The translations under genes were made by a program, and so were the position numbers. Below the pieces are notes generated by a model, which did not search any database, was not told where the DNA came from, and worked only from the letters and a program-made list of their open reading frames with translations. From Syntrophales bacterium (lineage in GTDB: Bacteria > Desulfobacterota > Syntrophia > Syntrophales > PHBD01), in the NCBI GenBank assembly GCA_963668175.1, contig OY764159.1:1664001-1728000 (forward strand): a stretch of 64,000 nucleotides of DNA, written 5' to 3'. Within the stretch, counting starts at the first letter, position 1. Every line of letters begins with the position of its first letter. Positions 1-19,077 of the stretch are shown piece by piece.

Positions 1-798
1 CCTGTTTTCAACCTTAGAGTTCGAGATAATCTTCTTGAGTGGACCGCACAGCAAAGGAAAAAACATCTTGTTAGTTTGATGGATGCCTATGTCCTCGGTG
101 CTGTCCCTCCGTACAATTTTTTATTGTGCGGTAAAATGATTGCGTGCCTGATAAGAACAAGAGAAGTCCGTGACCACTTTTCTGAAAAATATGACAAGAC
201 AACAGGTATTATTTCTGGCGAGAGCAAACATGCGAAATTGGTTGCTATTACTACATCCTCAGCTCTCGGGAAATCATCTCTTTACAATAGATTGACAGTC
301 AACGGACAAAAGTATTTCAAATCGATAGGTTTCACTGAAGGTTGGGGACATTTCCACGTCCCTGATTTGTTATTTAAATCCATCAGAGAATACTTGGAAA
401 TTAAGGGGCACCAATACGCCGGAAACAATCGTTTTGGGGAAGGTCCCAATTGGCGATTACGAGCGATTCGTCAAGTGCTGACATCATTGAAACAAAATCC
501 AAACTTACTCAAGCACGGAATAGCGCGGGAAGTATTTCTTTGCGAGTTTGCTGCAAATAGTAAGTCCTATTTGACGGACAAGGTTAAGCAACCGAAATAC
601 AGTGATCTTTTATCTGTCACAGAGGTTGCGAAGCATTCTCTTGCTCGATGGGTCATTCCACGTTCTTTAAGAAAACCTGAATATTGTAGTTGGAAGAGAC
701 AGAACATACGACATCTTCTGAAACCGTATGGCAACCGAACTGCAGAGGCTGTAATAACCGAACGAAAGGAACTTAAAGTTGGCTCTTGCAAACTTTGA
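1..798 (+). CDS. DUF4338 / Druantia DruA-like protein, 5'-truncated by the window edge
   Basis: Frame 1 is open from base 1 (PVFNLRVRDNLLEW...) into MDAYVLGAVPPYNFLLCGKMIA, ITTSSALGKSSLYNRL and GFTEGWGHFH, motifs recognised from DUF4338/DruA proteins. Stop overlaps the next gene start. Confidence 0.75.
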   Translation, partial: PVFNLRVRDNLLEWTAQQRKKHLVSLMDAYVLGAVPPYNFLLCGKMIACLIRTREVRDHFSEKYDKTTGIISGESKHAKLVAITTSSALGKSSLYNRLTVNGQKYFKSIGFTEGWGHFHVPDLLFKSIREYLEIKGHQYAGNNRFGEGPNWRLRAIRQVLTSLKQNPNLLKHGIAREVFLCEFAANSKSYLTDKVKQPKYSDLLSVTEVAKHSLARWVIPRSLRKPEYCSWKRQNIRHLLKPYGNRTAEAVITERKELKVGSCKL

Positions 799-1945
799 CT
801 TGGATTCTCTTCGAGAAAAAGTTTTGGCAGCCTATAAAGTCGATGACCCTCTTCTTAAGAAGTTCAGGGAATACGCTCGACGGCTTGGCGCCAATGTCAA
901 ACCACTCAGAACATACTCAGTCAATGCAGTGTCCTTTGTATCAGCCGATGGAGGAGATAATCGTCTAACATTCAATCCGGCTATTGTTGAACTCGTTCGA
1001 GTTGTAGACTCTCGTGGTAACCAATGCGCCTTGGATGCTATTGCCAGCACTGCCGGCTCCAATGAGCTGAATGAGCGCATCAAACCAAATACGCCATCTC
1101 TAGTTGCTCCGCTACAACGTCTTTGTAACGACCTTGATATAGAAGATGTTGTCGCGTTATCCTATCTTCTGAAAGCACTCGACGAGCCGGGGAAAAGCAC
1201 AGGAGCAATCCGATGTTATCGTGATATTGTAGAATGGGCTGTACTTTATGACCTCATCTGCAATCCTGCCATTCAATGGGGCAGCGACACAATTCTGATA
1301 AGGGACGGCCTTCTTCGGACGAAGTCATTCAAACGGGAGATATTTCCTAAAATTGATCAAAATATTCGAGAAGGTGTAAAAAAACACCAAGAACGCAATG
1401 TTGCCTTGTCGTTGGTCGGTGTGGCCAAACAGAGCGCAGTTCTTGGTAGATTAGCCGTGGCACTCGAATTAGAAGCGACATTCCACAAACGTTATCCATG
1501 CTTCTGTGAAGTTCCTGAAGACATAGAGAGCGATTGTTACAACTTCGATATAACTTGGCTAAGAACGTATGAATCCTTTGAGTCTGATGATAAAGAAGTG
1601 AAACTTTACCAGTCAATGGGAAAGATGTACCTTGCCAAATTCGGAGACCATCCTTTTGATCCCGTATGGCCGGTTGATATTGCAGTCTGGCAAACGTCAA
1701 ACGCAGAAAAGATTCTTGGTCAACTGACAGTCGATGCACAACAGGGTTTCCCAATTCCTGATTATCCGATGACTATTCAGAAAGCACATGATTTTGCTAA
1801 GCTCAGTGGTTTAGAAGTGGAAGTCCTTCAGGATTTATTAATGCGAGGTATAACTCAAAACCTTGCCCCTGATGAAGCAGAACGAATACTGCGAATGAAA
1901 CATCTTGGAAGAACACTTGCAGCTTTGAGATACAAGGAGGGATGA
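779..1945 (+). CDS. NurA-like nuclease (RNase H-like fold)
   Basis: VSADGG near the N-terminus, ILIRDGLL, VGVAKQS and C-terminal DYPMTIQKAHDFAK match the NurA catalytic motif pattern. Directly upstream of a HerA ATPase with ATGA overlap. Confidence 0.75.
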   Translation: MALANFDLDSLREKVLAAYKVDDPLLKKFREYARRLGANVKPLRTYSVNAVSFVSADGGDNRLTFNPAIVELVRVVDSRGNQCALDAIASTAGSNELNERIKPNTPSLVAPLQRLCNDLDIEDVVALSYLLKALDEPGKSTGAIRCYRDIVEWAVLYDLICNPAIQWGSDTILIRDGLLRTKSFKREIFPKIDQNIREGVKKHQERNVALSLVGVAKQSAVLGRLAVALELEATFHKRYPCFCEVPEDIESDCYNFDITWLRTYESFESDDKEVKLYQSMGKMYLAKFGDHPFDPVWPVDIAVWQTSNAEKILGQLTVDAQQGFPIPDYPMTIQKAHDFAKLSGLEVEVLQDLLMRGITQNLAPDEAERILRMKHLGRTLAALRYKEG

Positions 1946-3145
1946 TGCTTTTCGCCAACTCACAAGTCATGGGAACTTTCAAAGGATTTAATGAAAGAGG
2001 TTTGGAATTCGCCGCCGAGATAATAGCCCCATATGACGCCAGTATGCTTGAGCGCCCTCAACTCGGGCAATTCCTTCTAATTGAACTTGGCTCATTGGAA
2101 GAAGCGGCCCTTGGCCGGATTACCCGCTTTGTTCCTTCAGGTCTTCTAGCCACTGCCGAAGGAGAAGACTATGTCAATACAATGCAACGCAGACAACAGG
2201 CCGTTCCTGAAGATCTGAAACAGCAACGGCTTAAGTATCGAGTTCAGGTCAAACTATTGGGTGCAGTTCGTCTTGTTAAAAAAGAAGGCAAAGACACTGT
2301 TACCTACGTACCATCCCAGAGAAGGCTGCCTCATCTCGGCGCTAAAGTAGCCCTTCCCAGTTCGGAAGTTTTAGCTGAACTCTGCAAGTTAAGTAAGGGT
2401 GAAACCGATCTTGGTGACTATGTGCTAGGGGAGTTTGTTTACTCAGGTTCCGATGTTCCAAATGAAAATCCTATTTTGCGTCCAACGGACCCATCTCTGT
2501 CAGTAAAATTTGATATAGGTAACCTAGTTTCACGTAGATCGGTTGTTTTTGCGCGCGCAGGTTATGGTAAGTCCAACCTCATTAAGTATCTTATCTCTGA
2601 ACTATATAAAAAGGGCCAGCCTAAAACTGAAGGTGGGCAAAACGTAGGTACTCTAATTTTCGATGCTGACGGTGAATATTTTTGGCCAGACAGAGTCAAA
2701 CACCGTCCCGGTCTATGCGACGTGACGCATCTCAAGGATCATATTCTTGTATTCACAAACCGCCAACCCTACAATCCATATTATGGAAGCTGGAAAGCAG
2801 GAGAAGTGAGGCTCGATATCCGTGATCTTCCTCCGCGGGATGTTGTAGGAATCGCTGTGTCTTCTGAGCGGCAGGAACAACAGAATATACTCAAATTAAA
2901 AGGTCTGACGGATACAAATTGGAGACAATTAGTTGATTTAATACACAAAGATCGCCTTCAGGCTTCCGAAATCCAAGTCGGTGAATTGATGGGGTATTCG
3001 GAGAAACAGATTAAAGAAAGCGGTGCAGAAATAGCAGCAGCTAAAAGCAACATGAATAACGTTGTCAGGTTGCTACACGATCCAGCAAGTCAACTTCTTT
3101 CAGGCACTCTTCAGGCACTCATGCAAGGTCACATTGGAGTTGCCC

Positions 3146-3994
3146 CTATTTCACCGGACACTGTTCTAACTTATTTTGATGTCTCCTATACTCCCTGGGC
3201 GACATCATTTTCAATCCCTTGTGCGGATGGTTTTCATTGTAGTCTAAGAACCATCCGGGCAGTTGCTTCATGACCGTTTCGGCATCAGTCAGGATATTCA
3301 GATGAATATAATCCCTCTTGAAGGTCTTGACAAAGGATTCGGCCATTCCGTTCGATTCCGGGCTATAGAACGGGGTCGTGCAAACCTCAAGCCCCATCAT
3401 CTGCCCAAAGCTTTTCGTTTCCCTGGCGGTGTACGCAGGACCATTATCGCTCAGCCACTGGATTCTGTGAGGCAGCCGATTGATCATACCGAAACGGGCC
3501 TCAATGGCTTCCGCCATCAAGTCCCTGACCATGTCGCCGGATACGCCCCCTGTCGTGGCTACATAACTCATGATTTCCCTGTCGCAACAATCCATGCTGA
3601 ACGCTACCCGGAGACGGTCCCCATTCCAGCAGGCAATCTCAAACGCATCGGAACACCAACGAAGATCGCTCCGTCTCGTCGTGACCTTGCCCTCGTGAAG
3701 CCTTGCCGGCCTACCCGTATGCCGCTGAAGAAGCAGATTGTGCATCTTCATGAGACGATAAATCCGTTTGGGGTTAACTCCCGGATGCCCCTGACGTTCC
3801 AGAAACCTGTTGATTCTTGCCGTTACTCTCCGATAGCCGTAACTGGGACGATTATCAATAACCTGCCTGATCAGAAGAAGATATCTGCCATCGTCGCCTC
3901 TCCTGTAATGGCGGCTTCTCGAATCGGCTTCCTTCCCTTGCCTTTCGTACTGCCGGGAACGGGAAACGTCCAGCGTATCGACAACCGTCTTCAT
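3146..3994 (-). CDS. IS3-family transposase OrfB (DDE integrase core)
   Basis: YGYRRV, WCSD, LSDNGPAY and SPESNGMAESFVKTFKRDY motifs. Confidence 0.95.
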   Translation of the reverse strand: MKTVVDTLDVSRSRQYERQGKEADSRSRHYRRGDDGRYLLLIRQVIDNRPSYGYRRVTARINRFLERQGHPGVNPKRIYRLMKMHNLLLQRHTGRPARLHEGKVTTRRSDLRWCSDAFEIACWNGDRLRVAFSMDCCDREIMSYVATTGGVSGDMVRDLMAEAIEARFGMINRLPHRIQWLSDNGPAYTARETKSFGQMMGLEVCTTPFYSPESNGMAESFVKTFKRDYIHLNILTDAETVMKQLPGWFLDYNENHPHKGLKMMSPREYRRHQNKLEQCPVK

Positions 3995-4368
3995 CGGGAA
4001 TCGTCCTCCGGCAACAACGGCAACCGCGAGATCAGTTTTTTTTCACGGGCAATCCGGACAGCCTCTCTTAATATCTCCACCTCCATTGTCTTTTTGCCCA
4101 GAAGACGCTCCAACTCCCGGATCTGCTTCTTCAGTTCTCTGGCTTCCGATGCAGGAACGACGCCTTCATCTGCACCAACCGCCGACAGAGCCCCTTCTTC
4201 GGCAAGCCTGCGCCAGTGGAACAACTGGTTCGGATGGATGTCATACTTCCGGGCTACAGCCGAGATGCTCATTCCCGGCTGCTCCGCCTCCCGCACCATC
4301 GACTTCTTCTCGGCAGCCGACCAGCGACGTCGCCTCTGTACACCGACGATCACTTCTACAGGAACCAT
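3991..4368 (-). CDS. IS3-family transposase OrfA (HTH)
   Basis: RRRRWSAAEK...VARKYDIHPNQLFHWRR and ELERLLGKKTMEVEILREA. A8 slippery tract at 4036-4043 (minus strand) fits a -1 frameshift into orfB. Confidence 0.9.
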   Translation of the reverse strand: MVPVEVIVGVQRRRRWSAAEKKSMVREAEQPGMSISAVARKYDIHPNQLFHWRRLAEEGALSAVGADEGVVPASEARELKKQIRELERLLGKKTMEVEILREAVRIAREKKLISRLPLLPEDDSR

Positions 4369-5376
4369 AAACACCTTCTTTCTGGTTGTAGTAATATCTC
4401 TATATCTATTCCTACAACTTATTTCCAGATTCAAAGTGTCCGGTTCAATTGGGGGCTACTTCACACATCGTTGTTATCGACATAAGCCTCTTGAGTTCTA
4501 CTGCAGGAAATACAATTGCCGGTCTGATCCTCAGAAGAATCTTTTCTCATAATCAAGAAAATTTTACCGGCGGGCAGTCACCCATTCCGGTTGTAACTGT
4601 GATCGAGGAAGCTCAGAGCGTCCTGGGGAGAAACCTCGATGAATCGAGTCCCTTTGTCGAATGGGTTAAAGAGGGTCGGAAATATGATTTAGGCGCAATA
4701 CTCGTTACTCAACAACCTGGATCTCTAGCTCCAGAACTTATGAGTCAGGCTGATAATTGGTTCAGTTTTCATTTGTTATCGGAAGGCGACGCAGGGGTAC
4801 TCGGTAAATACAATTCTCATTATTCCGATGATATCTTGTCGCACTTAATTGGGGAACCTATCCCTGGTAATTGTTTCATGTGGAGTGCCCCGCATCAGCC
4901 ATTCGTTCTGCCCGTTAGAGTTAGAAGTTTCGAGGGGCTTTATAGAGGCAATGTAAAGTTTGATGATGCATCAGGCGCCGTTCCTGACACTCCGGCGTCT
5001 AAGGTCCACAAAGATGTTTCAGCGAGACTTAATGAATTAGCAGGGAGAATTAAAGAGTCACTCAAAGCGCCTAGTACGAAGTTCGTTCAAGTATCTCCGG
5101 ATAAAGTTGGCATTAAGAGTGGACAACTATACTATCTTATAAGAGATGCCAAAAGTCTCAATGACTATGAAACTGCGAATCAGCTAATGGAACCATTATT
5201 AACAATTATACTTGGCGAAGGTAATTTTCAACAAACCGAGTTCAAAGACAAGGAGTTCTTTTGTTCTTCCCAAGAAAATTGGGCGAAAGCTCTCGGGAAA
5301 AATATTAGAATATCAGTCGGTTAATCATGGGCTACAACAGCATTTATTCAAAAGTAATTTAGATGGAGGAACATAA

Positions 5377-6408
5377 ATGTCGGAAAAGGAATTAACAATG
5401 GAAATGGCAAATCTCATATGCCGATTCGGAAGTGAATTCGTCTTGCTGGATATGCTAGAGCCAATTGTTTTCCCTGCTTTTTTCGGTGAATCAAAAATCA
5501 GAGTCTATGGGGAAACAAGCTTTTTCTTTTTTGATGTCAAACTGGTTCGTCTCAAATCATATGAGAATAATCTCAGATTAGGCATAGCCGGACGATTCAT
5601 TAAAGACACAAAAGTGCAGCGGGACCAAATATTCGAAGAAGGAAAAGGAATCATTAAAGATAGTCGTACGCTGCGTAGTTCTCCATCTGCATTATTTCTG
5701 CTGCTACTTAATAATCATCGGCTAATTTACGTTAAAGAAACAAGAGATGCACCTCCTAAAGACACTTTCCGGACCACGCTCCATTATTTTCTCATGGAAA
5801 GACATAAATCGTTTCTGAGAAAAGCCTTCGAAGACTATAAACTACGACGAAAAAGGGAGCCAGAGACGCCTGTCATGAGAAAGATAGACTTTCTTGAATT
5901 GTTTCCTCCGCCGAGTCTAAAGCTGATTCCGCTGACATCTGAAGATAGTATTCAAGAATTCATCAATAAGTACGAACTATTGAGATCAATAGAAATTTCT
6001 ATATCAGATAGAAATAGCGAGATTGATAATGATTCATTCTTTGAGGAATTGAATCGGCGAAAAGAATTGCTCGGAAGTAAAAAATCAGCTGTTAAACATT
6101 CTAGTCGTAACGGCCTGGATAAAGAAATTGCGAAAAACGAAGTAAGAGAAGCAACGAGTCAGGGAAATCAGGTGGTTAATTTAGATGGATACGACACTGA
6201 AGGAAATAAATTACAAGGCAATAATGAAAAATTCCAGTTAAGAAGATCAATTGAAGTGAGCGAAAAAATGGATGAAGCAATATCGCAGCTGGATCAATCA
6301 TTTATGGATCTAGTTAAGGCCGGTGTAGTGAAAGTACCGGAAGAACGTGAAAAAGATAAAGAGATTTTACGTTCAATTTATCGAGGCCATTATGACAAAA
6401 GCCGATAA
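5377..6408 (+). CDS. Hypothetical soluble protein, possibly DUF4747-like
   Basis: 343-aa AT-rich ORF with GGAGG RBS that overlaps a multi-TM gene. The family guess is weak. Confidence 0.6.
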   Translation: MSEKELTMEMANLICRFGSEFVLLDMLEPIVFPAFFGESKIRVYGETSFFFFDVKLVRLKSYENNLRLGIAGRFIKDTKVQRDQIFEEGKGIIKDSRTLRSSPSALFLLLLNNHRLIYVKETRDAPPKDTFRTTLHYFLMERHKSFLRKAFEDYKLRRKREPETPVMRKIDFLELFPPPSLKLIPLTSEDSIQEFINKYELLRSIEISISDRNSEIDNDSFFEELNRRKELLGSKKSAVKHSSRNGLDKEIAKNEVREATSQGNQVVNLDGYDTEGNKLQGNNEKFQLRRSIEVSEKMDEAISQLDQSFMDLVKAGVVKVPEEREKDKEILRSIYRGHYDKSR

Positions 6409-7048
6409 TTTAAATTCTGCGGAATTGACCAGTGAAAAAAGATTATGTGAAATTTATCATAAGTCAAGAAAAATCCCGATGAGTAAATTCAATTTATGGT
6501 CAACTCTGATTGTTATGGTTTCTTTGTCCATCAATGTTTGGATTTCAAATCAGTCAATTGGTGATATGCTCGACATCATCAGAAAATCAGCTGAAAATGG
6601 CTTATCAATTTCTCTCAATACCCTTGGTTTTCTCATCGCAGGATTCACGGTATTTGCTACTTTGTCTAGTCCCGATCTGTCCCTTGAAATGGCAAATCAT
6701 ACGCATTCAGAAAGTGGATTATCATACTTGAAATACAATTATTTTGTTTTATTGAGGGTATTTGTACATTTCATAATTTTTGCAGGATTCTGTCTCGCCA
6801 TAGTGATGTATGGTCACAAAAATGGATTAGTATCATCATTAATAGCATCAGTAATATTAAAGTATCCGAAACTTTCTTTTTTACGTGATTGCCTTGTTGA
6901 AATATCATATGTGCTTATTTATACTGGATATTATTTCCTTCTCGTTCAATTGAAATCTTTCATATTTAACATTTACCATATCGTAATGACTTCTCTAAGA
7001 TGGAAAGCCGAACAAGGAACCGTCAGTGACAGTGCCCACATCGAATAG
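6392..7048 (+). CDS. Hypothetical membrane protein (~4 TM)
   Basis: Four hydrophobic segments, including LGFLIAGFTVFATL. Very AT-rich. ATG at 6392 overlaps the upstream gene. Confidence 0.7.
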   Translation: MTKADNLNSAELTSEKRLCEIYHKSRKIPMSKFNLWSTLIVMVSLSINVWISNQSIGDMLDIIRKSAENGLSISLNTLGFLIAGFTVFATLSSPDLSLEMANHTHSESGLSYLKYNYFVLLRVFVHFIIFAGFCLAIVMYGHKNGLVSSLIASVILKYPKLSFLRDCLVEISYVLIYTGYYFLLVQLKSFIFNIYHIVMTSLRWKAEQGTVSDSAHIE

Positions 7049-7086
7049 AACCGCCAATCAATTATCTATCAATTATTCAGACAGTA

Positions 7087-7115
7087 TTGACAAGGGTTAG
7101 CATATATGCTAACTA
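7087..7115 (+). promoter_or_regulatory. Sigma70-type promoter (TTGACA 7087-7092) with perfect 18-bp palindromic operator GTTAGCATATATGCTAAC (7096-7113)
   Basis: Seen directly. ATG at 7122 has no RBS, consistent with a leaderless autoregulated transcript. Confidence 0.65.
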
Positions 7116-7121
7116 ATCTTC

Positions 7122-7481
7122 ATGGCTGAACTGAAATATAAACCCGTTCCCCACGACCATAAGGCCTTTCTCGATAAGGCCCGGAAGCGGGAGGGATTCG
7201 ATAAGGCATACCGCGATTTGGAAGAAGAATATGCGCTCGTCCGGGCGATGCTGTCGGCCCGGTCGAAATCCGGCCTTACCCAGGAGGCGGTTGCCGCGTT
7301 GATGGGAACGACGAAAAGCGCCGTCTCGCGCCTGGAATCCGCCGGGAAACATTCGCCCTCCGTGGCAACGCTGAAAAAGTACGCCCGTGCCCTCGGCTAT
7401 CGTCTGGAGATTAAATTCAAACCCGGAATCGTTCCCGCAAGCCGAGCGACCGGCGGATTGAAAAAGAAGCAGGCCTTCTAA
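7122..7481 (+). CDS. XRE-family HTH protein, HigA-like antitoxin
   Basis: AYRDLEEEYALVRAMLSARSKSGLTQEAVAALMGTTKSAVSRLES...PSVATLKKYARALG. Confidence 0.85.
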   Translation: MAELKYKPVPHDHKAFLDKARKREGFDKAYRDLEEEYALVRAMLSARSKSGLTQEAVAALMGTTKSAVSRLESAGKHSPSVATLKKYARALGYRLEIKFKPGIVPASRATGGLKKKQAF

Positions 7482-7924
7482 ATAAACCGATTCCTGCAAA
7501 ACCCGTGCGGTCGGCATCGGCAACTCTCAGCCACGCGGCTTCTTGGATGAGCCGCCGGCCTTATCCCGCGCCTGTCCGTTCCCCGTCGCTCCTCACGGCC
7601 GCAGCCGCCAGAACCCCTCTGCAACAAATTTGTTCCCCGCCTGATCGGATCGCCTTTTCCCTTTCAAATCGCCTGCCGGTGTAGCATTTCGTCCACCGGG
7701 GCAGCCGTGCAGGAAGGCCCGTATGATTTCATCCACCCGTGAATCATATGCTCCATTTCCTTGAATCATTCAAATAATACCGGATGTTCCGTGGGATGAC
7801 GCGATGGATTTTTTTCTACAGCGGTTGCCCCGAGCGTATGTTTTCATCCGTTTTTCTCCCGCGGCGGCGGCCTCTCTTTTTGAATTGCAAGCCAAAACAG
7901 CATCTTGCCTCCGGCGGTGATCGC

Positions 7925-7940
7925 TGGCACGCTCATTGCT
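7925..7940 (+). promoter_or_regulatory. Sigma54 (-24/-12) promoter of the CoA-transferase operon
   Basis: TGGCACGCTCATTGCT is a consensus TGGCAC-N5-TTGC, about 150 bp upstream of 8093. Confidence 0.8.
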
Positions 7941-8092
7941 GTGTATCAAGCCATCTGTAAACATAACTATGTTGCGATTGAGCCCGTCCGGGATGCGATG
8001 AGGCAATATGGATGAGTCTGTCTGCTGGACTGTTCCCGCGGACCGGGAGGGGTGCGTCTGATGAGTACTAAATCTACGGGAGGTATCTATTT

Positions 8093-9037
8093 ATGAATAC
8101 GTCGAAGGTCATGACGGCCAAGGAAGCCGTGACCAAGTTCATCGGCGACGGTATGACGGTAGGCGTGGGCGGTTTCTTTCACGCCATTTCCTATGCCATT
8201 ACGCATGAAATCATCCGTCAGCAGAAGCGCCATCTTACGATCTGCCAGCCCAGCTTCAACGATCACGCCGACCAGTTGATCGGCGCCGGGTGCGTGGACC
8301 GCATCGTGTCTTCCTACGTCTGGATGGAAGTCTTCGGGCCCCTGTACTGCTTCCGGCGGGCTATGGAAAAGGGCATCCCCCACAAGATCGAGATGGAGGA
8401 CTACACGAACTTCGCAGTCATGGCGAGATATCTGGCCGGTTCGCTCGGCATTCCCTTTATCCCCATCCGCTCCATGATGGGAAGCGACATGATGAACTAT
8501 TCGGCATGGATGGGCGACAAGAAGGTCAAAACGATCGAGGACCCCTTTAATCCCGGGCAGGAATACGCCGCCGTTCCCGCGCTCACGCCGGATATCGGCT
8601 ATTTCCACGTCCAGAGGGCCGACGCGGAAGGCAACTGCCAGATGTGGGGCATCTGGGGCGACTCACCCTGGAGCATGAGGGCCTGCAAGCAGGTCATCGT
8701 CTCCTGCGAAGAGATCGTGACCCGCGACATCATCGGCCGCGATCCGAACCGTACGATCCTGCCGGGCTACAAGGTCTGCGCCGTCGTGGAAGCGCCGTTC
8801 GGCGCCCATCCCAAGCATACGCAGGGCTATTACGATGTCGACAGGGACTTCATCTTCAAGTACGTCCGCGAATCCCAGAAGGAAGAGGGATGGAAGAAGT
8901 TCATGGACGAGTGGGTATACGGCGTCGAGGACAGGGCCGGTTATCTGAAGAAATATATCGACACCTTCGGCATGAAGCGTTTCCTCGATCTCAAGGCGAG
9001 GGACATCAGCTCCAGCTCGGTCAACTACGGATTTTAA
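8093..9037 (+). CDS. Family I CoA-transferase subunit A (glutaconate CoA-transferase GctA-like)
   Basis: GMTVGVGGF, HEIIRQ, GIPFIPIRSMMGSD, HVQRADAEGN, VVEAPFGAHP. Confidence 0.9.
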   Translation: MNTSKVMTAKEAVTKFIGDGMTVGVGGFFHAISYAITHEIIRQQKRHLTICQPSFNDHADQLIGAGCVDRIVSSYVWMEVFGPLYCFRRAMEKGIPHKIEMEDYTNFAVMARYLAGSLGIPFIPIRSMMGSDMMNYSAWMGDKKVKTIEDPFNPGQEYAAVPALTPDIGYFHVQRADAEGNCQMWGIWGDSPWSMRACKQVIVSCEEIVTRDIIGRDPNRTILPGYKVCAVVEAPFGAHPKHTQGYYDVDRDFIFKYVRESQKEEGWKKFMDEWVYGVEDRAGYLKKYIDTFGMKRFLDLKARDISSSSVNYGF

Positions 9038-9048
9038 GGAGGTTTATC

Positions 9049-9828
9049 ATGGCTGCCCAAAATGCCACATATACGCTGCAGGAACTCATGGCCGTCGCGG
9101 CTTCGAGAGAAATCAAGGACGGAGAGAAGGTGATCATCGGCACGGGCCTTCCCCTCCTCGGGGCCTTCCTGGCCCAGAAGACCCATGCCCCCAACATTGT
9201 AGCCATCTACGAATCGGGGGCCATCGACTGCAAGCCCCTGGTGACCCCTTTCTCGGTGGCCGACTCCGTGCTGGCGCCGGGATCGGCGATGCAGGGCGGG
9301 CTCATGGAGGGCCTCGGCATCGTCCACGCCGGAGATCTCGATGTGGGATTCCTCGGCGGCGCCCAGATCGACAAATACGGCAATCTCAATACGCACGTCA
9401 TCGGCGACTACCGGAACCCCAGCGTCCGTTTCGCCGGCAGCGGCGGCAGCAACGATATCGGCGCGGGCTGTAAGCGGACGATCATCATGATGCTGCACCA
9501 GAAACAGCGCTTTCCCGAAAAGGTAGACTTCGTCACCACGCCGGGCTACTTCGGCGGCGGCAAGGAACGGGAAAAGATGGGCTTCTACGGAAACGGCCCG
9601 AGCGTCGTGGTTTCCACCCTGGGAATCCTGCGTTTCGACCCCGTGACGAAGGAGATGTATCTCGCGTCCAACCATCCCGGCATCTCCATCCAGACGATCA
9701 AGGACAACACCGGCTGGGACCTGAAGATCGCCCCGGATATCCACGAGACCGAACCGCCCACGCCGGAACAGATTCGCATGCTCCGGGAAGAACTCGATCC
9801 CACCGGCGTGTTCCTGGGAAAGAAGTAG
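9049..9828 (+). CDS. Family I CoA-transferase subunit B (GctB-like)
   Basis: ELMAVAASREIKDG, IYESG (catalytic Glu), FLGGAQIDKYGNLN, GSGGSND. AGGAGG RBS before ATG 9049. Confidence 0.9.
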   Translation: MAAQNATYTLQELMAVAASREIKDGEKVIIGTGLPLLGAFLAQKTHAPNIVAIYESGAIDCKPLVTPFSVADSVLAPGSAMQGGLMEGLGIVHAGDLDVGFLGGAQIDKYGNLNTHVIGDYRNPSVRFAGSGGSNDIGAGCKRTIIMMLHQKQRFPEKVDFVTTPGYFGGGKEREKMGFYGNGPSVVVSTLGILRFDPVTKEMYLASNHPGISIQTIKDNTGWDLKIAPDIHETEPPTPEQIRMLREELDPTGVFLGKK

Positions 9829-9891
9829 AAAATGTAACCCGATTCGTAGCGACGAGCATGTGCGGATCCTTTGACGACGAGGAGATGAAAG

Positions 9892-10653
9892 ATGGCAGAC
9901 GTTGTTCTCTACGAAAAAAAGGAAAATCTGGCTTTTATCACATTCAACCGCCCCGAGGCGCTCAACGCCCTTAACACGGAAGTCAACATGAAGGTCGTCG
10001 AGCTTCTGGATAAGGCGGAAGCCGACCCCGAGGTGCGCGTGATCATCCTCACGGGCACGGGCACCAAGGCCTTCGTGGCCGGGGCCGACATCAAGGAGAT
10101 GCTGAGCATGGGCGCCATGGAGGCCCGCGCCCACGCCCTCAAGTTCAAACGGGTGACGGACAGGATATGGAACTTCCCGAAGCCCGTCATCGCGGCCATT
10201 AACGGCTTCTGCCTCGGCGGAGGCCTGGAATATGCGTTGGCGTGCGATCTTCGGATCGCCGCCGCCAACGCCCGGATGGGACTGCCGGAAATCAGCCTGG
10301 GCATCCTGCCGGGCGGCGGGGGGACGCAGAGGCTTCCCCGCATCATCGGCCTCACCAAGGCAAAGGAATTGTGCCTTACCGGCGACATGATCGACGCCGC
10401 CAAGGCTCTGGAACTGGGCCTCGTCAACGCGGTCTATCCTTATGAATCGCTCATGGACGAGACGGTGGCCCTGGCGAAGAAGATTGCATCGAAGAGCGCG
10501 GCGTCCGTCACGCTCATTAAGCTGGCCATGAACAAGGGGACGGAGATGGATCTGGAATCGGCCGCCCTGTTCGAGATCGACAGTTTCGGCCTCTGCTTCT
10601 CCACGGAAGAGCAGAAGCAGGGTATGGCCGCCTTTGTCGGCAAGAAGAAGTAA
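9892..10653 (+). CDS. Enoyl-CoA hydratase (crotonase)
   Basis: NRPEALNALN, AFVAGADI, GGGLEYALACD, PEISLGILPGGGGTQRL. Confidence 0.95.
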   Translation: MADVVLYEKKENLAFITFNRPEALNALNTEVNMKVVELLDKAEADPEVRVIILTGTGTKAFVAGADIKEMLSMGAMEARAHALKFKRVTDRIWNFPKPVIAAINGFCLGGGLEYALACDLRIAAANARMGLPEISLGILPGGGGTQRLPRIIGLTKAKELCLTGDMIDAAKALELGLVNAVYPYESLMDETVALAKKIASKSAASVTLIKLAMNKGTEMDLESAALFEIDSFGLCFSTEEQKQGMAAFVGKKK

Positions 10654-10730
10654 CGTAACCATCTATCCCGGCTGGACCGGACAGAGATATTGAAGCAGCA
10701 CAAAATTCAACATGCGTATTGGAGGTAGAT

Positions 10731-11876
10731 ATGGATTTCAGACTGAATGACGTTCAAACGATGCTAAGGGACACCATCAGGAGGATCGCCCAGGAGCAGT
10801 TCGCGCCCAGGGCGGCGGAGATCGATGCATCCGAAAGGTTTCCCTGGGAAAACTTCGAGGTACTGCGGGACAACGGTCTTCTGGGTGTCAACGTGGAAGA
10901 AGAGTACGGCGGTACCGGCGCCGGCCAGCTGGCGATGCTGCTGGTCCTTGAAGAAACGGCCCGCGCCTGCGGTTCCACCTCGGTCATCCTGACCAACCAG
11001 GGGCTTTCCAGCGAACCCCTCATGATCGCCGGCAACGAGGAACAGAAAAAGACGTACCTTTACCGCCTGGCCACGGGCGAATGCCCCGGCGCTATGGCTA
11101 TCACGGAACCGAACGCCGGTTCGGACGTGGCGGGAATGAAGACGACGGCCACCAAGGTAGACGGGGGCTACGTCCTGAACGGTTCCAAGATATTCATCAC
11201 CCAGGCCGCCGTCGCCGGGATCACGAACGTGATCTGCTACACCGACAAGTCCAAGGGCAACAAGGGTATGAGCATCTTCACCATCGAGAAAGGCGCGAAG
11301 GGACTGGTTATCGGCAAGCCTGAGCACAAATTGGGCATCCGCGGCTCCGACACGCGCGAGCTTTCCTTCGAGGACTGCTTCGTTCCCGATAAAAATCTGG
11401 TAGGTCCCGAGGGAAGCGGCTTCAAGACCCTCATGAAGACCTTCAACTACTCGCGACCCAATATCGCCGCCCAGGCCCTCGGCATCGCCCAGGGTGCGCT
11501 GGACGCCGCCATTTCCTACGCGAAGGAACGCATGCAGTTCGGCAAGACCCTGGCCTCTTTCCAGGGCATGCAGTGGATGCTGGCCGAGATGGCGCTCGCC
11601 GTCGAGTCGTCCCGGACGATGGTTTACCGTGCGGGCACCATGATCGATACGGAACCCGACCATCCCGATATCCCCAAGATCTGTTCCATGGCGAAATGGA
11701 TCGCTTCCGACACGGCCATGAAGGTCACGACCGACGCCGTGCAGATTTTCGGCGGCTACGGCTACACCAGGGAGTATCCCGTCGAGAGAATGATGCGCGA
11801 TGCCAAGATCACGCAGATTTACGAAGGAACAAACCAGGTACAGCGGATCATCATCGGAGGCCAGCTGTTGAGGTAG
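10731..11876 (+). CDS. Acyl-CoA dehydrogenase
   Basis: AITEPNAGSD, LNGSKIFIT, QIFGGYGY, RDAKITQIYEGTNQVQR. Confidence 0.95.
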   Translation: MDFRLNDVQTMLRDTIRRIAQEQFAPRAAEIDASERFPWENFEVLRDNGLLGVNVEEEYGGTGAGQLAMLLVLEETARACGSTSVILTNQGLSSEPLMIAGNEEQKKTYLYRLATGECPGAMAITEPNAGSDVAGMKTTATKVDGGYVLNGSKIFITQAAVAGITNVICYTDKSKGNKGMSIFTIEKGAKGLVIGKPEHKLGIRGSDTRELSFEDCFVPDKNLVGPEGSGFKTLMKTFNYSRPNIAAQALGIAQGALDAAISYAKERMQFGKTLASFQGMQWMLAEMALAVESSRTMVYRAGTMIDTEPDHPDIPKICSMAKWIASDTAMKVTTDAVQIFGGYGYTREYPVERMMRDAKITQIYEGTNQVQRIIIGGQLLR

Positions 11877-12235
11877 GACACCATTACAGGCCGGGACGTG
11901 CTCCGCGTGTTCCGACTGCTGAAGACGATGATCGAAAGGTGTGCCGGAAACGGAGACCCCCGTCCGGCGCACCTTTGATCTTTGACAACGATATAGCAGA
12001 CGATTTTTTACAATTTTGTAACACGTATGGGAATGCATGATATCCTACGCTAATGACGCAAATGCTTCATCGGTTCCGGCAACGGACAATCCTGGCGGAT
12101 AAGCCCGGGGGCCGCAACTCCCGTCCCGACCGACGGCGGGCTCCGAGTGAAGCATTTCATCCAGAACAGCGGCGGCGGCAGGCGTTCCCTGATAAATAGT
12201 GGCATGATATCGGAGCCTTATAAATAATGGAGGAC

Positions 12236-12251
12236 TGGCACGTTTCTTTCT
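12236..12251 (+). promoter_or_regulatory. Probable sigma54 promoter of the MFS operon
   Basis: TGGCACGTTTCTTTCT: perfect -24 box, one mismatch at -12. The same upstream motif as the 7925 promoter occurs at a similar distance. Confidence 0.55.
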
Positions 12252-12349
12252 ATCTCTCATGCGAGCCCTCAAAAAGCATCCGATATCCAGCAAGGCTTTA
12301 ACCTATTTTCCAGTATGGAATAGATTAATTATGTTAAGGAGGAGGGAGT

Positions 12350-13669
12350 ATGGCCAATGAATCAGTAGCAACAGCAACACAGGCATTTGCGAAGCCAGAG
12401 ACCAATACCCGCTGGTATATCGTTTTTATGCTGGCTCTGGGAACAGTCATCAACTACATTGACCGCGTCAATTTCGGTGTCGCGACGCCGACATTGATGA
12501 AGGAGTTCAACTTGGGGGCGGTGGAAATGGGCGTCCTCATGTCGGCCTTCTTCTGGTCGTATACCATCATGATGCTTCCTGCCGGCGCCCTTTTGAACAA
12601 ATTCGGGCCCCACAAGGTCCTGGGCGCCGCGGGGCTCGCCTGGGGTGCCGTCACGATGTCGATGGCGGCCTGCCAGGGTTTCGTTTCGTTTATCGTGATC
12701 CGCGTCGGTCTGGGCCTCACGGAGGCACCCGCTTTCCCGTCCAACGCCCGTGTGGTTTCGGTCTGGGTGCCGAAGCGGGAAAGGACCTTCGCCTCGGCGA
12801 TGTTCGACTGCAGCGCCCGGGCCGGTAATGCCTTTGCGCCCCCGCTCGTCGCCTACATCATCGCGGCATGGGGCTGGAAGGCCTCCTTCGTCGTCACCGG
12901 CGCCCTGGCCGTTGTCTGGGCCATCTGGTGGCTCATGACCTATCACGAACCGTCCAAGCATCCGAGAATCTCCAAGAGCGAACTCATGTATATCCGCCAG
13001 GACGAAGTCATCCATGACGACGGGACGATCAAGAGCCATCCGATTCCCATGTGGCGGCTTATCACCTATCCCACCATCCTCAAGCTGTGCGTCGCCTATG
13101 CGCTCTATCTTTATGTCTGGGTCGTCTTCACGTTTTGGATTCCCACCTTCCTGATGAAGGCCAAGGGCCTGTCGCTGAAGGAGATGGGGCTTGCCGCGTC
13201 GGTGCCGTTCATTGTCGGCGTTCTCATGGAGCTCGTCGGCGGCAAGGTTTTCGACAAATGGTACGATAAGGGCGGCACGATCAACTCCCTGCGCCGGACA
13301 GGCATGGGCATCGCCATGTTCGGGGCGGCCATTTTCATCTACTGCCTCATGGAATCCAACACGGCCTTCTGGGCGGTCTTCTGGCTGAGCGCCTTCATGG
13401 GAATCTTCTCCTTCGGCGCCTCCAACGTCTGGGCCATCCCGAGCGACATCGCCCCTTACGGACAGGCGGGCGGCGTCGGCGGCATCTACAATTTCGCCGG
13501 CAACTTCGGCGCCCTCTTCGGCCCGATGATCACCGGCTGGTTCGTCCAAAATTCGCCCTATGGCTTCAACGGCGCCTTCGGGCTCTGCGCGGCTTTCGCG
13601 GCAATAGGCGGTTTCCTCTACATCTTTACAAGCTATGAACGCCTGATGCCCAAGAAACAGGATATGTAA
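12350..13669 (+). CDS. MFS transporter, anion:cation symporter (organic acid) family
   Basis: INYIDRVNF, SAFFWSY, EAPAFP, W-x-PKRER; about 12 TM. Confidence 0.9.
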   Translation: MANESVATATQAFAKPETNTRWYIVFMLALGTVINYIDRVNFGVATPTLMKEFNLGAVEMGVLMSAFFWSYTIMMLPAGALLNKFGPHKVLGAAGLAWGAVTMSMAACQGFVSFIVIRVGLGLTEAPAFPSNARVVSVWVPKRERTFASAMFDCSARAGNAFAPPLVAYIIAAWGWKASFVVTGALAVVWAIWWLMTYHEPSKHPRISKSELMYIRQDEVIHDDGTIKSHPIPMWRLITYPTILKLCVAYALYLYVWVVFTFWIPTFLMKAKGLSLKEMGLAASVPFIVGVLMELVGGKVFDKWYDKGGTINSLRRTGMGIAMFGAAIFIYCLMESNTAFWAVFWLSAFMGIFSFGASNVWAIPSDIAPYGQAGGVGGIYNFAGNFGALFGPMITGWFVQNSPYGFNGAFGLCAAFAAIGGFLYIFTSYERLMPKKQDM

Positions 13670-13682
13670 ACATTAAGAAGAT

Positions 13683-13716
13683 CCGGGACGGCCGCCCGCA
13701 AGGGTGGCCGTCCCGG
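13683..13716 (+). terminator. Strong intergenic hairpin (GCAA loop), RNA stabiliser or terminator
   Basis: CCGGGACGGCCGCCC-GCAA-GGGTGGCCGTCCCGG; no U-tract. Confidence 0.5.
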
Positions 13717-13837
13717 CCCCTATCGGCGCTTCTCATTGCAAGCGAGGCCCCGCATGAGCGGTCCTGCGGCGCATCCCGTGTAATGATCCGCGATTCTCGA
13801 AAGCAGTTAAGAAATAAACACAGGAAAGGAGTTTGTT

Positions 13838-14977
13838 ATGGAGTTCTCTTTAACGGAAGAACAAACCATGTTTAAGGAGACCGCGAGGAAATTTGCCGAA
13901 ACGGAGATTACTCCTCTCATTCATCAGATGGAAACGACACAGCGGACGCCCCGCGAGCTGATCAAGAAGATGCGGGAGTTGAGTTTTTACGGAATCCAGT
14001 ATCCGGCCAAGTACGGCGGTGTCGGCAGCACTTATCTCGAATACGTTATGGTCCTTGAAGAGATCTGTCGCGTGTACTGCGCAATCGGCGGCCATATTTC
14101 CGTCAACTGTCTCTGCGCAGGGACGCTCAACGATTTCGGCACGGAAGAACAGAAGCTGAAGTACCTGCCCCAGGTCGTGGCCGGAGACGCGGTAGGGAGC
14201 TTTGCCTTCACCGAGCCGGCGACGGGCTCCGATCCCGGTGCGGTCCGGACGACCTGCGTCCGCGACGGTAACGACTGGGTCATCAACGGCGAAAAGATAT
14301 TCATCACCAACTCGACCCTGCCCGGCTATATCGTCGTCTTCTGCAAGGATGTGGAAAAGGAAAACAAGATCACGAATATCATCGTTCCCAAGGATGCCAA
14401 GGGCTATTCTACGCCGAAGCTCGTGGAGAAGATGGGCATGCACGGCATGGAAGTGGCCGACGTCGTTCTTGAAGACGTGCGCGTGCCGTTTGAAAATACG
14501 ACCGGCGGTGAAGCGGGACGGGGCAAGGGCTTCACCATTCTGACCACGGAAATCGCCATCGGGAAGCTGGGCATCTCGGCCGAGTGCGTCGGCATGGCCC
14601 AGGGCGCCCTTGAAGAGGCGATCAAGTATGCCAAGGAGAGGGTCCAGAGGGGAAAGCCGATTTCCAGCTTCCAGACGATCCAGTGGCTTCTTGGCGAAAT
14701 GTCGTCCGATGTCGAAGCGGCGCGGCAGTACCTGTACTACACGGCCTACTGGAAATCCCAGAAAAAGGATATCCTGTTCGATTCGGCGAGGCTCCGTCTC
14801 TTCGCATCGCAGGCTTGTCACCGCGTGACGAGCAACGCCATGCAGGTCCTCGGTGCGTTTGCCTATTCGAAGGAGTTCAACGTGGAGCGGATCTTCCGCG
14901 ACATGAAACTGGCGGAAATTTACGAAGGTGTCAACGAAATCCAGCGCGTCATGGCTGCGGCCGGTGTCCTTCGCTAA
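13838..14977 (+). CDS. Acyl-CoA dehydrogenase
   Basis: FAFTEPATGSD, INGEKIFITN, EIYEGVNEIQR. Confidence 0.95.
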   Translation: MEFSLTEEQTMFKETARKFAETEITPLIHQMETTQRTPRELIKKMRELSFYGIQYPAKYGGVGSTYLEYVMVLEEICRVYCAIGGHISVNCLCAGTLNDFGTEEQKLKYLPQVVAGDAVGSFAFTEPATGSDPGAVRTTCVRDGNDWVINGEKIFITNSTLPGYIVVFCKDVEKENKITNIIVPKDAKGYSTPKLVEKMGMHGMEVADVVLEDVRVPFENTTGGEAGRGKGFTILTTEIAIGKLGISAECVGMAQGALEEAIKYAKERVQRGKPISSFQTIQWLLGEMSSDVEAARQYLYYTAYWKSQKKDILFDSARLRLFASQACHRVTSNAMQVLGAFAYSKEFNVERIFRDMKLAEIYEGVNEIQRVMAAAGVLR

Positions 14978-15011
14978 ATAGATCATAAGTATATCAGGAA
15001 GGAGTACGTTT

Positions 15012-15785
15012 ATGGACATGAAGTATTTGCTGTTGAATGTGGAAGACAAGGTGGCGACCGTAACGATCCATCGTCCCGACAAGGGGAATGCGCTGGCGCC
15101 GGAGGTTCTTCAGGAAGTGGAATATATCTTTACGGAGATCGCAAAGCGTCAGGACGTGAACGTGGTCGTGTTCACGGGCGGCGAGAAATACTTCTCGGCG
15201 GGCTTCGATCTCACGATCATCCGGAAGCTGGAGAAAGTATCGAACGAGGACTACACGGCGCTGTTCCACCGTGCGTACCGTGCGATTATGTTCTGCGAGC
15301 AGCCGGTAATCTGCGCCGTAGGCGGACCGGCGATCGCGGGCGGATTCGACCTGACCTTGATGTGCGATATCCGGTATGCATCCGAGCGGGCGAAGTTCGG
15401 TCAGCGGGAAATCGTTCTGTCGCTGACGCCGATCATGGACCCGCTGTGGCGTATCATCGGTCTGGGCCGTGCGAAGGAAGTGGCGCTGACGGGCCGTATC
15501 TACGACGCCCACGAGGCGGAGAAGATGGGCTACGTGACGAAGGTGTTCCCGGAAGGGCAGTTGCTGACGTCTGTCATGGCGATCGCGAAGGAGATGGCCT
15601 CCTACGACCGTATGTGCCTGAAAGAGACGAAGCAGCTTGCGAACCACATTTTGGACGAAGACCTTGACGGCGCCATGAAGGTCCAGGAATGGCTGTTCAG
15701 GACGTATATCGGCTCCGAGGACAACCACCAGCGCATCGACGCCCTCCAGGCCAAACTGGCGGCGGCGAGAGCGAACAAGAAATAA
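15012..15785 (+). CDS. Enoyl-CoA hydratase/isomerase family protein
   Basis: HRPDKGNAL, FSAGFDL, GGFDLTLMCDIR, FGQRE. Confidence 0.9.
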   Translation: MDMKYLLLNVEDKVATVTIHRPDKGNALAPEVLQEVEYIFTEIAKRQDVNVVVFTGGEKYFSAGFDLTIIRKLEKVSNEDYTALFHRAYRAIMFCEQPVICAVGGPAIAGGFDLTLMCDIRYASERAKFGQREIVLSLTPIMDPLWRIIGLGRAKEVALTGRIYDAHEAEKMGYVTKVFPEGQLLTSVMAIAKEMASYDRMCLKETKQLANHILDEDLDGAMKVQEWLFRTYIGSEDNHQRIDALQAKLAAARANKK

Positions 15786-16331
15786 CGGCCTTGCAGTAAG
15801 GGGGCCCGGGATACCGGGTTTACTGGGCCAGTTCTGCGTGCCGCGAAGGACGGCCGGATGATGCGGACATCCGGCCGTCCCCGCGCGGTGGCAGGACCGG
15901 CCCCAACGAGGCAGAGATGCCGTCCACCCCTTTGACATCGTTCAATCTTTTCTTCCTCTCCGGGCGGACCGACTGACGCGGATATGTGCACCGGCGGAGA
16001 ACGGCCGCCGTTTCTCTGCGGACGAGGAATGAATCAGGAACCGGGGCTCCGCGTGGAATTTCGATCCGGCTCGCTGCAGGCTTGACGTCTGGGGACATCC
16101 GCGGGGACGGGTTCCTGTTGCTTGTCGTGTCTGTCAACGTACCCCTTGCGCGGGCGGGCATTTGCTGGTATGAAGAGCACATCACCCCATCCGTGATGGG
16201 AAGCTGTAAGGGGTGGGACTACTGAGTGCCCTCATTTGTGTCGCCCTGCCACTTTCGGTTCCCTGCGTTGCCTGCATTCCTGCGCTGTTGAGCAGTCATA
16301 TTCTCCTTAGGAAAGGGTTATAATACCCCAT

Positions 16332-16904
16332 ATGAATGCCATATCCGTCGCCGCCATCGTTTTTGCCGCCGCCCTGGTCGTCATTTTCATCCGCGGACAT
16401 CGTATCCTTAAGAAACGAGAGAAGAGGCTCGAAGAGATTGCCCGGGAGGAGCAGAGGGATGTGAGAAAGCTTGCTTACGTCGCCTACCACGGCGGTCATC
16501 CCGACCTACCGGTGCCCCAGAAGCTGACGGCGGCTCTGACGGAGGATGCCCTTGTCCTGGTAACCAACCGGGGAGATAAGACCGTGCTTCCCATGCAAGA
16601 CTGGGTCAAGTTGGAGAAGTTTACGACAAAGCGGAAGCACGATGTGAAGCAGCGGAGCATGGTCCTCTGGGGCCCTTTCAATAATGTCATGTTCAAGGAT
16701 CAGATCCGGCATTTTATAGTCGTCAACTACCGCCACGGCCGGAACGAAGATCCGGACAACCATATCCTGATCGAACTGGGAAACCCGGACGAGAGGGACA
16801 AGGTATTTGCGGAAATCGACCGGACGCTCACGCAATTCAGACGTTCCGGTCCGGTGGCGGAGCGGGGCCGGCCGGCGGAAGCGGATCTGCTGCATACGTC
16901 CTGA
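16332..16904 (+). CDS. Hypothetical protein with N-terminal TM anchor, possible PH-like domain
   Basis: Hydrophobic residues ~4-20 followed by a beta-rich soluble region; host-like codon usage. Confidence 0.65.
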   Translation: MNAISVAAIVFAAALVVIFIRGHRILKKREKRLEEIAREEQRDVRKLAYVAYHGGHPDLPVPQKLTAALTEDALVLVTNRGDKTVLPMQDWVKLEKFTTKRKHDVKQRSMVLWGPFNNVMFKDQIRHFIVVNYRHGRNEDPDNHILIELGNPDERDKVFAEIDRTLTQFRRSGPVAERGRPAEADLLHTS

Positions 16905-16932
16905 CCGGTGCCAGACGGGGAAAACGGGCGCG

Positions 16933-19071: not shown

Positions 19072-19077
19072 GGGGCC

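Follow-up and report, generated by a model that had tools for sequence, protein, structure and literature searches.

The window analysed here, a 64,000-nucleotide stretch of the genome of a Syntrophales bacterium (contig OY764159.1 of assembly GCA_963668175.1, positions 1,664,001 to 1,728,000), opens with three co-oriented genes. They encode a DruA-like (DUF4338) protein, a NurA/TdpB-like nuclease (NUR) and a HerA-type ATPase, and the ATPase gene is interrupted by an insertion sequence (IS) (Table 1). The three open reading frames (ORFs) on the forward strand span 1–798 (open at its 5' end), 779–1945 and 1942–3273, the third resuming at 4449–5324 after the insertion. The NUR gene starts with TTG at 779–781, 20 nt inside druA, the TGA stop codon of which lies at 796–798; AAAGG is found upstream of this start. 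NUR and herA are joined by an ATGA at 1942–1945, with AAGGAGG just 5' of it. The G+C content is 0.44 for 1–3134 and 0.43 for 4469–5324, compared to 0.52 for the insertion, 0.575 for 8000–20000 and 0.58 for the whole window. Direct reading of the sequence thus agreed with the first-pass annotation, which had described three overlapping, co-oriented genes in an AT-rich block unlike the host DNA. A tRNA gene scan revealed none marking this AT-rich island, and promoter and terminator scans gave background-level signals.

Table 1. Features of the interrupted cassette in the window.
Feature	Position	Strand	Basis or remark
druA-like gene, 3' 265 codons inside the window	1–798	+	DUF4338 protein, GNAT fold by model
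NurA/TdpB-like nuclease gene (NUR), 388 aa	779–1945	+	fold match to TdpB/NurA
NUR candidate catalytic residue D57, in SADGGDNR	941–964		
NUR candidate catalytic residue E152, in VEWAV	1229–1243		
NUR candidate catalytic residue D176, in IRDGLL	1298–1315		
NUR candidate catalytic residues D300 and H337			
herA 5' part, codons 1–397 and two bases of codon 398	1942–3134	+	Pfam DUF87
Target-site duplication CACAT, left copy	3130–3134		sequence reading
IS3-family (IS2-group) insertion sequence, 1329 bp, TG...CA ends	3135–4463	-	transposase models
IS orfB	3146–3994	-	IS2 TnpB
IS orfA	3991–4434	-	IS2 TnpA
Target-site duplication CACAT, right copy	4464–4468		sequence reading
herA 3' part, stop codon 5322–5324	4469–5324	+	PADLOC HerA models
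HerA C-terminal extension, about 126 aa past the ..FEGLY core end	4944–5321	+	type unassigned; not in TdpA

The cassette was compared with 45 related loci (referred to by L numbers), which were obtained from a scan of one genome per species and belong to at least 14 phyla. The product of the first gene matched Pfam DruA PF14236 (1.2e-49, profile positions 105–296 of 297) and PADLOC DruA1 (1e-114, profile positions 147–399 of 407). Since the DruA1 match begins at position 147, about 146 N-terminal residues of DruA should lie upstream of base 1. The herA product matched Pfam DUF87/HerA (5.5e-20), and PADLOC HerA models matched its 3' part (best 2.1e-14); the NCBIfam and PADLOC HerA matches were weak and below the cut-offs of these models. 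A Walker A motif (GYGKS, 2560–2574) and a Walker B-like motif (VIEEAQ, with IEEAQ at 4602–4616) are conserved in an alignment of 22 full-length HerA homologs. In the PDB, the best sequence match of the full-length homolog from L001 was TdpA (8wet_A, 6.4e-23), followed by the ATPases of Sir2-HerA and DUF4297-HerA (4.2e-10 to 4e-4) and archaeal HerA. The match to TdpA stops at residue 552 of 668, i.e., about 116 residues short of the C-terminal end. The C-terminal tail is covered by no Pfam or PADLOC model and is less conserved than the core, yet it is present in all 22 aligned homologs, including those from loci without druA.

The NUR product had no match in Pfam (including its NurA family), NCBIfam, PADLOC or PHROGs. 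An AlphaFold model was obtained from an alignment of 22 sequences (predicted local distance difference test score (pLDDT) 76.7; predicted template modelling (TM) score 0.79). Its best Foldseek match in the PDB was TdpB from the cryo-electron microscopy structure of the TdpAB complex (8wfd_G; E of 1.6e-12, TM of 0.64/0.69). NurA structures from Sulfolobus, Pyrococcus, Thermococcus and Deinococcus followed (2ygk, 3tai, 9x1n and 7f6d; E of 6e-6 to 5e-4), and then PIWI and EndoV domains. NUR and TdpB share only 17–18% identity, and the NUR profile searched against PDB sequences reached TdpB weakly (0.059) among what was otherwise repeat-protein noise. In the Atlas clusters nearest to NUR, 17–30% of the members carry PF09376 (NurA). 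Five residues (D57, E151, D/E175, D299 and H336 in the numbering of L002) are conserved in 28 of 28 sequences, one of them archaeal and 35% identical. This acidic/His set resembles a D-E-D-H RNase H-like site and, in light of the literature on NurA, is presumably catalytic. The model makes NUR a nuclease of the NurA fold, with TdpB as its closest match. The family assignments made from the letters in the first pass, a DruA-like protein, a NurA-like nuclease and a HerA with an extra C-terminal region, therefore held, NUR by its fold and the HerA tail by lying beyond the end of the TdpA match.

In a large protein collection, 751 NUR homologs were found, the best 120 of which are 69–100% identical and nearly all 387 aa long. 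When the NUR profile was searched against 1.84 billion representatives clustered at 50% identity, 415 proteins matched at ≤1e-3 and 98 at ≤1e-30. Thus, the conserved NUR core is embedded in a more diverse family.

The three genes recur together. With the proteins of the window as tblastn queries, DruA was found in 40, the N-terminal part of HerA in 41 and its C-terminal part in 42 of the 45 loci. Clustering of their 615 ORFs yielded NUR (44 loci), HER (42 loci) and DRU (40 loci) as the only recurrent families; a fourth family, present in 8 loci, was linked solely via an HTH domain, and all others occurred in at most 3 loci. The three families are adjacent in 39 of the 45 loci. The order DRU-NUR-HER, as in the window, was observed in 22 loci and NUR-HER-DRU in 17, while druA is convergent in one archaeal locus. 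The reading frames of the cassette overlap or abut, and its length is 4.3–4.5 kb in 32 of the 36 loci measured. The cassettes are patchily distributed, and near-identical copies occur in phyla that are unrelated. As judged from these sequence comparisons, the triad is a real, self-contained and conserved operon module, and its conservation in other genomes, on which the first-pass annotation had made its proposal of a new system depend, is evident.

No terminal inverted or direct repeats consistently surrounded the cassette in the 36 loci. In L030 and L032, the triad has exact direct repeats (37 bp and 31 bp, respectively) to its left and right, no more than 450 bp away, which were absent from the other 34 loci; these may represent duplications of an insertion site or intergenic elements that are repeated. 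Five loci are without druA, namely L024 (a 1.6-kb contig), L045 (a nuclease fragment only), L036, L038 and L039. Decay was seen in L037, L041, L043, L044 and L045, where herA is split, all three genes are fragmented or a nuclease stub is left. Including that of the window, 6 of 46 copies are broken.

In the window, the break is due to the IS. Its ORFs matched NCBIfam IS2 TnpB (3.4e-76), IS3 transposase (1.1e-57) and IS2 TnpA (1.8e-34) as well as Pfam rve and HTH_Tnp_1, its imperfect inverted repeats lie at 3143–3162 and 4435–4454, and its end sequence occurs in a single copy within the window. Target duplications of 5 bp are typical of IS2-group elements. Full-length homologs run uninterrupted over the insertion site (..GHIVVIDIS..), and the herA of the window aligns with them up to ..GHI. 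After in silico removal of the IS and one CACAT copy, herA encodes 682 aa without a stop codon, compared to 668–696 aa for the homologs. Since the IS splits herA between the Walker A and the Walker B-like motif, the ATPase copy, and hence the system, should be inactive in this genome.

The DruA of the window is 52–59% identical to those of the close DRU-NUR-HER loci (L001–L007, L009–L011, L014, L018, L020 and L022), 41–44% identical to those of the other intact loci and 37–42% identical to those of the decayed loci L041 and L044. The full-length DruA of L001 shares 50–51% identity with annotated DruAs on P. putida, N. watsonii and Ralstonia plasmids. On the P. putida and N. watsonii plasmids, druA comes first and is followed by 2–3 hypothetical genes and a gene for a 1,840-aa DEAD-box helicase, i.e., the canonical Druantia layout. 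Trees of DruA (42 rows) and of concatenated NUR and HER (38 rows) were inferred by a quick search with Shimodaira–Hasegawa-like approximate likelihood ratio test (SH-aLRT) support only, and both contain some rows with long branches and odd composition. In the DruA tree, the two canonical Druantia DruAs (of the P. putida and N. watsonii plasmids) nest within the DRU-NUR-HER clade (14 triad and 2 Druantia sequences, SH-aLRT of 98). DruA is thus a module common to two effector machines, between which it moves. The NUR-HER-DRU class forms a separate deep DruA clade with stem branches of 0.74 and 2.29. In the NUR and HER tree the same class is one clade (support of 100) with a stem of 0.23, sister to the group of the window (support of 93). 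Between the two classes, DruA identity is 28–32% versus about 61–64% for NUR. On this comparison, DruA has apparently either been exchanged or diverged several-fold faster than NUR and HER.

More distant DruA-annotated genes were also seen on plasmids. On a Hymenobacter plasmid (L049, 11130–14288, 1,052 aa) and a Halobaculum plasmid (L050, 8692–11325, 877 aa), a distant DUF4338 gene is followed a few genes downstream by FtsK/SpoIIIE-domain genes, which matches published DUF4338-DndF fusions. On a Meiothermus plasmid (L048, 5318–13143), druA lies about 1.2 kb past a gene for a 1,807-aa DEAD-box helicase, with transposase genes on the flanks and no DruB-D annotated between; either this Druantia locus has been rearranged or its annotation is incomplete.

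The structure of DruA was modelled for the L002 homolog (pLDDT of 86.4). All PDB matches of this model were weak (none at ≤1e-3) and of the GNAT type, comprising malonyl-CoA decarboxylase, acetyltransferases, Mom of phage Mu (rank 6, E of 0.024), the CurA loading domain and NAT10. The Mom enzyme itself has a GNAT fold and acts by modifying DNA adenines. DruA-like folds were also detected among viral proteins in BFVD: uncharacterised giant-virus proteins matched (Faunusvirus at 2.8e-15, another at 1.2e-11; also Yasminevirus and Dasosvirus), as did a tailed-phage fragment (1.5e-7, 23% identity), while a Mom homolog scored 0.02. PHROG 19197, to which no function is assigned, matched the GNAT core of DruA at 3.9e-9. 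Such viral DruA-like enzymes would fit a DNA-protecting mark.

A published comparative analysis independently classes DUF4338 as a GNAT domain. In a later paper with a similar approach, GNAT and TGT proteins are proposed as DNA modifiers in HerA/FtsK-centred BRC systems. One preprint describes an N6-methyladenine ('m6A') motif found in E. coli only with type I Druantia, a system that lacks a methylase domain, and assigns no gene to this modification; a 2026 preprint on Druantia cites the Druantia-I-dependent motif as a modification of the host genome. Neither this 2026 preprint nor one on YprA helicases mentions DruA.

The genomic neighbourhood was surveyed by taking, to the left and to the right of the cassette, the two closest ORFs with 100 aa or more (153 ORFs; three short ones were dropped, leaving 150 from 43 loci). 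Matches to PADLOC models at ≤1e-12 were obtained for 31 of the 150 ORFs, in 18 of the 43 loci, or in 17 after discounting a probably false match of IstB (IS21) to DrmD. They comprised type I methylase and restriction subunits, PDC-S02, GmrSD-like HEC-05 (four loci), dGTPase, HNH, KwaB, a full GajA and GajB pair, DpdE and DruE-like helicases (two loci), in agreement with Pfam. These neighbours are suggestive of a defence context for the triad.

Taking this evidence together, we favour, with slightly more than even confidence, the explanation that the triad is an unnamed, horizontally spread anti-phage or anti-plasmid cassette, in which a TdpAB-like motor-nuclease acts together with DruA for self/non-self discrimination. 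A role in defence, as far as sequence comparison can indicate it, appears probable, and a TdpAB-like effector nearly as probable. First, a HerA-type ring hexamer would pump double-stranded DNA into the NurA-fold nuclease for degradation, as in TdpAB and HerA-NurA. Second, DruA, by its GNAT fold probably an acyl-CoA-using transferase, would supply the self/non-self discrimination. Third, and as the most likely route, a covalent mark placed by DruA on host DNA would stall the motor-nuclease. That DruA marks DNA is the weakest link of the explanation, and we hold it with somewhat less than even confidence. DruA sits in the place of TdpC, and its mark would parallel the effect of phosphorothioate, which in the work of An et al. 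of 2025 is said to inhibit TdpAB translocation and cleavage on self DNA. A DNA mark is a coherent hypothesis, in which the position in the place of TdpC, the Druantia 'm6A' signal and the GNAT fold of Mom can be combined. If the read-out were generic, i.e., if any mark stalled the motor, the effector could stay conserved while DruA varies. More speculatively, and with clearly greater doubt, DruA may be a Mom-like writer of an acyl-type DNA mark, e.g., on adenine N6, that serves DruBCDE as well as the HerA-NurA pair; the 'm6A' of Druantia would then be a misread DruA mark. Such an acyl mark, if true, would be a kind of bacterial self-mark that has not yet been described.

Several observations weigh against this explanation. 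The GNAT assignment of DruA derives from weak matches (best E of 7.5e-3), Mom was one among many GNAT matches and not especially close, and the DruA profile gave nothing meaningful when searched against PDB sequences. The comparative analysis that classes DUF4338 as GNAT reads DUF4338 fused to DndF as a protein-targeting co-effector and not as a DNA modifier. NUR and HER are unusually conserved for defence genes (54–80% identity across phyla in 41 of 45 loci). In L036, L038 and L039, NUR and HER appear intact without an adjacent druA; their neighbours are unrelated (a CoA-transferase gene, a HEAT-repeat ORF), and the NUR and HER tree places these loci as two separate losses (L036 with L038; L039) among druA-bearing ones. 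A strict restriction-modification model is weakened by these loci, since NUR and HER without druA would be predicted to be lethal, unless druA is located elsewhere in the genome. Moreover, the count of defence genes among the neighbours is a raw one without a random-gene background, many other loci lie among housekeeping genes, and all 45 related loci come from metagenome-assembled genomes.

Part of this evidence can be accommodated by a different role of DruA with the same effector. DruA may act as a sensor of infection, as an activator or as a back-up co-effector with a protein, tRNA or a small molecule as its acylation target, and the nuclease-motor pair would be inert or regulated until infection. 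The three intact-looking loci without adjacent druA would then pose no difficulty, the published co-effector reading of DUF4338-DndF would apply, and the far faster evolution or swapping of DruA than of its partners (the stems given above) would fit a component exposed to phage proteins. A generic read-out would, however, also let a modifier change its specificity beside a conserved effector, the Druantia-I-dependent adenine modification of the preprint has no assigned enzyme, and no sensor-type domain was identified in DruA. On balance, we consider the sensor or co-effector role possible and rather unlikely.

A far smaller chance is given to the triad being machinery of a mobile element, in which a HerA/FtsK-type pump would transfer or package DNA, and not host defence. 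HerA/FtsK ATPases do serve in DNA transfer, and the cassette combines high conservation with horizontal spread. However, its conserved neighbours include no gene for a recombinase, a relaxase or a structural protein, flanking terminal inverted repeats are missing, and tblastn of NUR against 72,556 records of plasmids and 50,697 of phages gave no match. Slightly less probable still is a housekeeping HerA-NurA end-resection machine, as in archaea and Deinococcus, with DruA as an unrelated neighbour. NurA and HerA-NurA structures were indeed among the fold matches, but TdpB and TdpA were closer than any repair NurA or HerA. Furthermore, druA is adjacent in 40 of the 45 loci, whereas neither Mre11/Rad50, absent from the 150 neighbour ORFs, nor any other neighbour is conserved. 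The AT-rich block, the patchy spread with near-identical cassettes in unrelated phyla, the tolerated decay and IS insertion, and the defence genes next door also speak against repair. The least probable case, also raised in the first pass, is a canonical type I Druantia locus or its remnant with DruB-E upstream of base 1 and nurA-herA as chance neighbours: the window does open inside druA with a high DruA1 score, but canonical druA comes first with DruB-E after it, whereas here NUR follows, and the genes upstream of the same-order relatives are unrelated, with no conserved upstream genes in any of the 22 DRU-NUR-HER loci and no conserved DruB-E, a DruE-like helicase being near 2 of 43 loci only and on the opposite strand.

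These two helicase genes (L020, 11232–16316, and L031, 12406–17115, both on the reverse strand) encode DEAD and MZB/DUF1998 domains and matched PADLOC DruE3 (6.2e-86 and 8.3e-69, respectively); L031 also has DpdE upstream. They may lie there by chance, as part of a defence island, or may hint that DruA cooperates with helicases of the DruE type. In Bacteroidota loci (L019, L021, L026 and L045, and also L024 and L037), a small HigB-like gene and an HTH-IrrE/M78-peptidase gene lie directly upstream of the nuclease gene. The latter resembles PADLOC PD-Lambda-2_B and CapP, and in L037 a CapP-like gene (1.6e-58) is located downstream. The two could be a damage-responsive regulator pair; such pairs are known for CBASS.

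In the window, herA is followed by two more forward-strand genes at 5377–7048, which encode 343 aa and 233 aa, overlap at 6347–6408 and have a G+C content of 0.36. They had no match in Pfam, NCBIfam, PADLOC or PHROGs, and tblastn found them beside the triad in none of the 45 related loci. The second product resembles a multi-pass membrane protein by eye. The product of 5377–6408 lies near Atlas clusters in which a minority of members carry DUF4747, DUF6731 or RexA, hinting at a RexAB-like pair. This likeness was rejected as being without sequence support, and BLASTP returned nothing against the DUF4747 gene located after the triad of L035. An Xre-type HTH gene at 7122–7481 (HTH_3 at 2.8e-13, with weak MqsA/Xre-antitoxin matches) coincides with a jump in G+C content from about 0.35 to about 0.55–0.60, where the AT-rich block ends on its right side; an ORF for a partner toxin was not evident.

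Type I Druantia has DruA as its signature gene, and the triad links this gene to a different and far simpler effector. With three genes, the triad is a system in which the role of DruA can be isolated, and the solved homologous complex can guide the choice of mutants in its partners. If it acts as proposed, the triad would add a second member to motor-nuclease defence of the TdpAB kind, one spread across many environmental phyla compared to a few thermophiles. Should DruA mark DNA, this would be a new epigenetic self-mark that explains the puzzling observation made for Druantia.

The combination, which had not been recognised as a named system in the first pass, belongs to neither type I Druantia nor TdpABC by its gene content. 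The full-text literature, in a search outside of which most subscription journals lay, contained no description of a DruA and NurA-HerA triad; the searchable literature assigns no function to DruA and mentions DUF4338 in four papers only. PADLOC 2.0.0 has no model for NUR, and its Druantia type IV consists of DruE, DruF and DruL and so is not the triad.

Among the known systems, DndFGH with a DUF4338-fused DndF and BRC with GNAT and TGT share with the triad a GNAT domain, putative in DruA, next to a HerA/FtsK-superfamily pump in defence loci. They differ by having many more components and no NurA-fold nuclease, and the DUF4338 domain of DndFGH-type systems is distant (25–28% identity over about half of the query). 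Sir2-HerA and DUF4297-HerA likewise combine a HerA-family ATPase, ranking next after TdpA, with an effector. The effector of the triad is, however, a predicted NurA-fold nuclease, and neither a Sir2 nor a DUF4297 domain was found in the window or the conserved families. The archaeal and Deinococcus HerA-NurA end-resection complex has the same two folds in adjacent genes, whereas the triad shows no Mre11/Rad50, a mobile and patchy distribution, defence neighbours and a linked druA. The first-pass view of NurA-HerA as mainly an end-resection machine needs amending insofar as TdpAB, the closest solved relative, is a published defence precedent. With type I Druantia (DruABCDE), the triad shares a DruA about 50% identical over its full length. 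It differs in lacking DruB, DruC and DruD, in the NUR gene that follows druA with a 20-nt overlap, and in a HerA-NurA type pair in the place of the effector; DruE is not conserved, and no DEAD/DUF1998 helicase was found in positions 1–9000 of the window, which begins inside druA.

TdpABC comes closest. It is a phosphorothioate-based system of thermophiles (An et al., Nat Chem Biol 2025) with structures in the PDB (8wet, 8wfd and 8y1k). In this restriction-modification-like system, tdpC is, according to PMC12914056, the single gene for phosphorothioate synthesis. The third gene of the triad encodes DruA with its putative GNAT fold and not TdpC, with which no direct sequence comparison was made, and its HerA carries the extra tail of about 126 aa. 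Both consist of three genes, two of which, for a HerA-type ATPase and a NurA-fold nuclease, form the restriction pair (established for TdpABC and proposed for the triad), and TdpA and TdpB were the best sequence match of the ATPase and the best fold match of the nuclease, respectively. Since no solved structure is closer to either protein than that of TdpAB, the genes for the ATPase and the nuclease, two out of three, probably belong to a known kind of effector.

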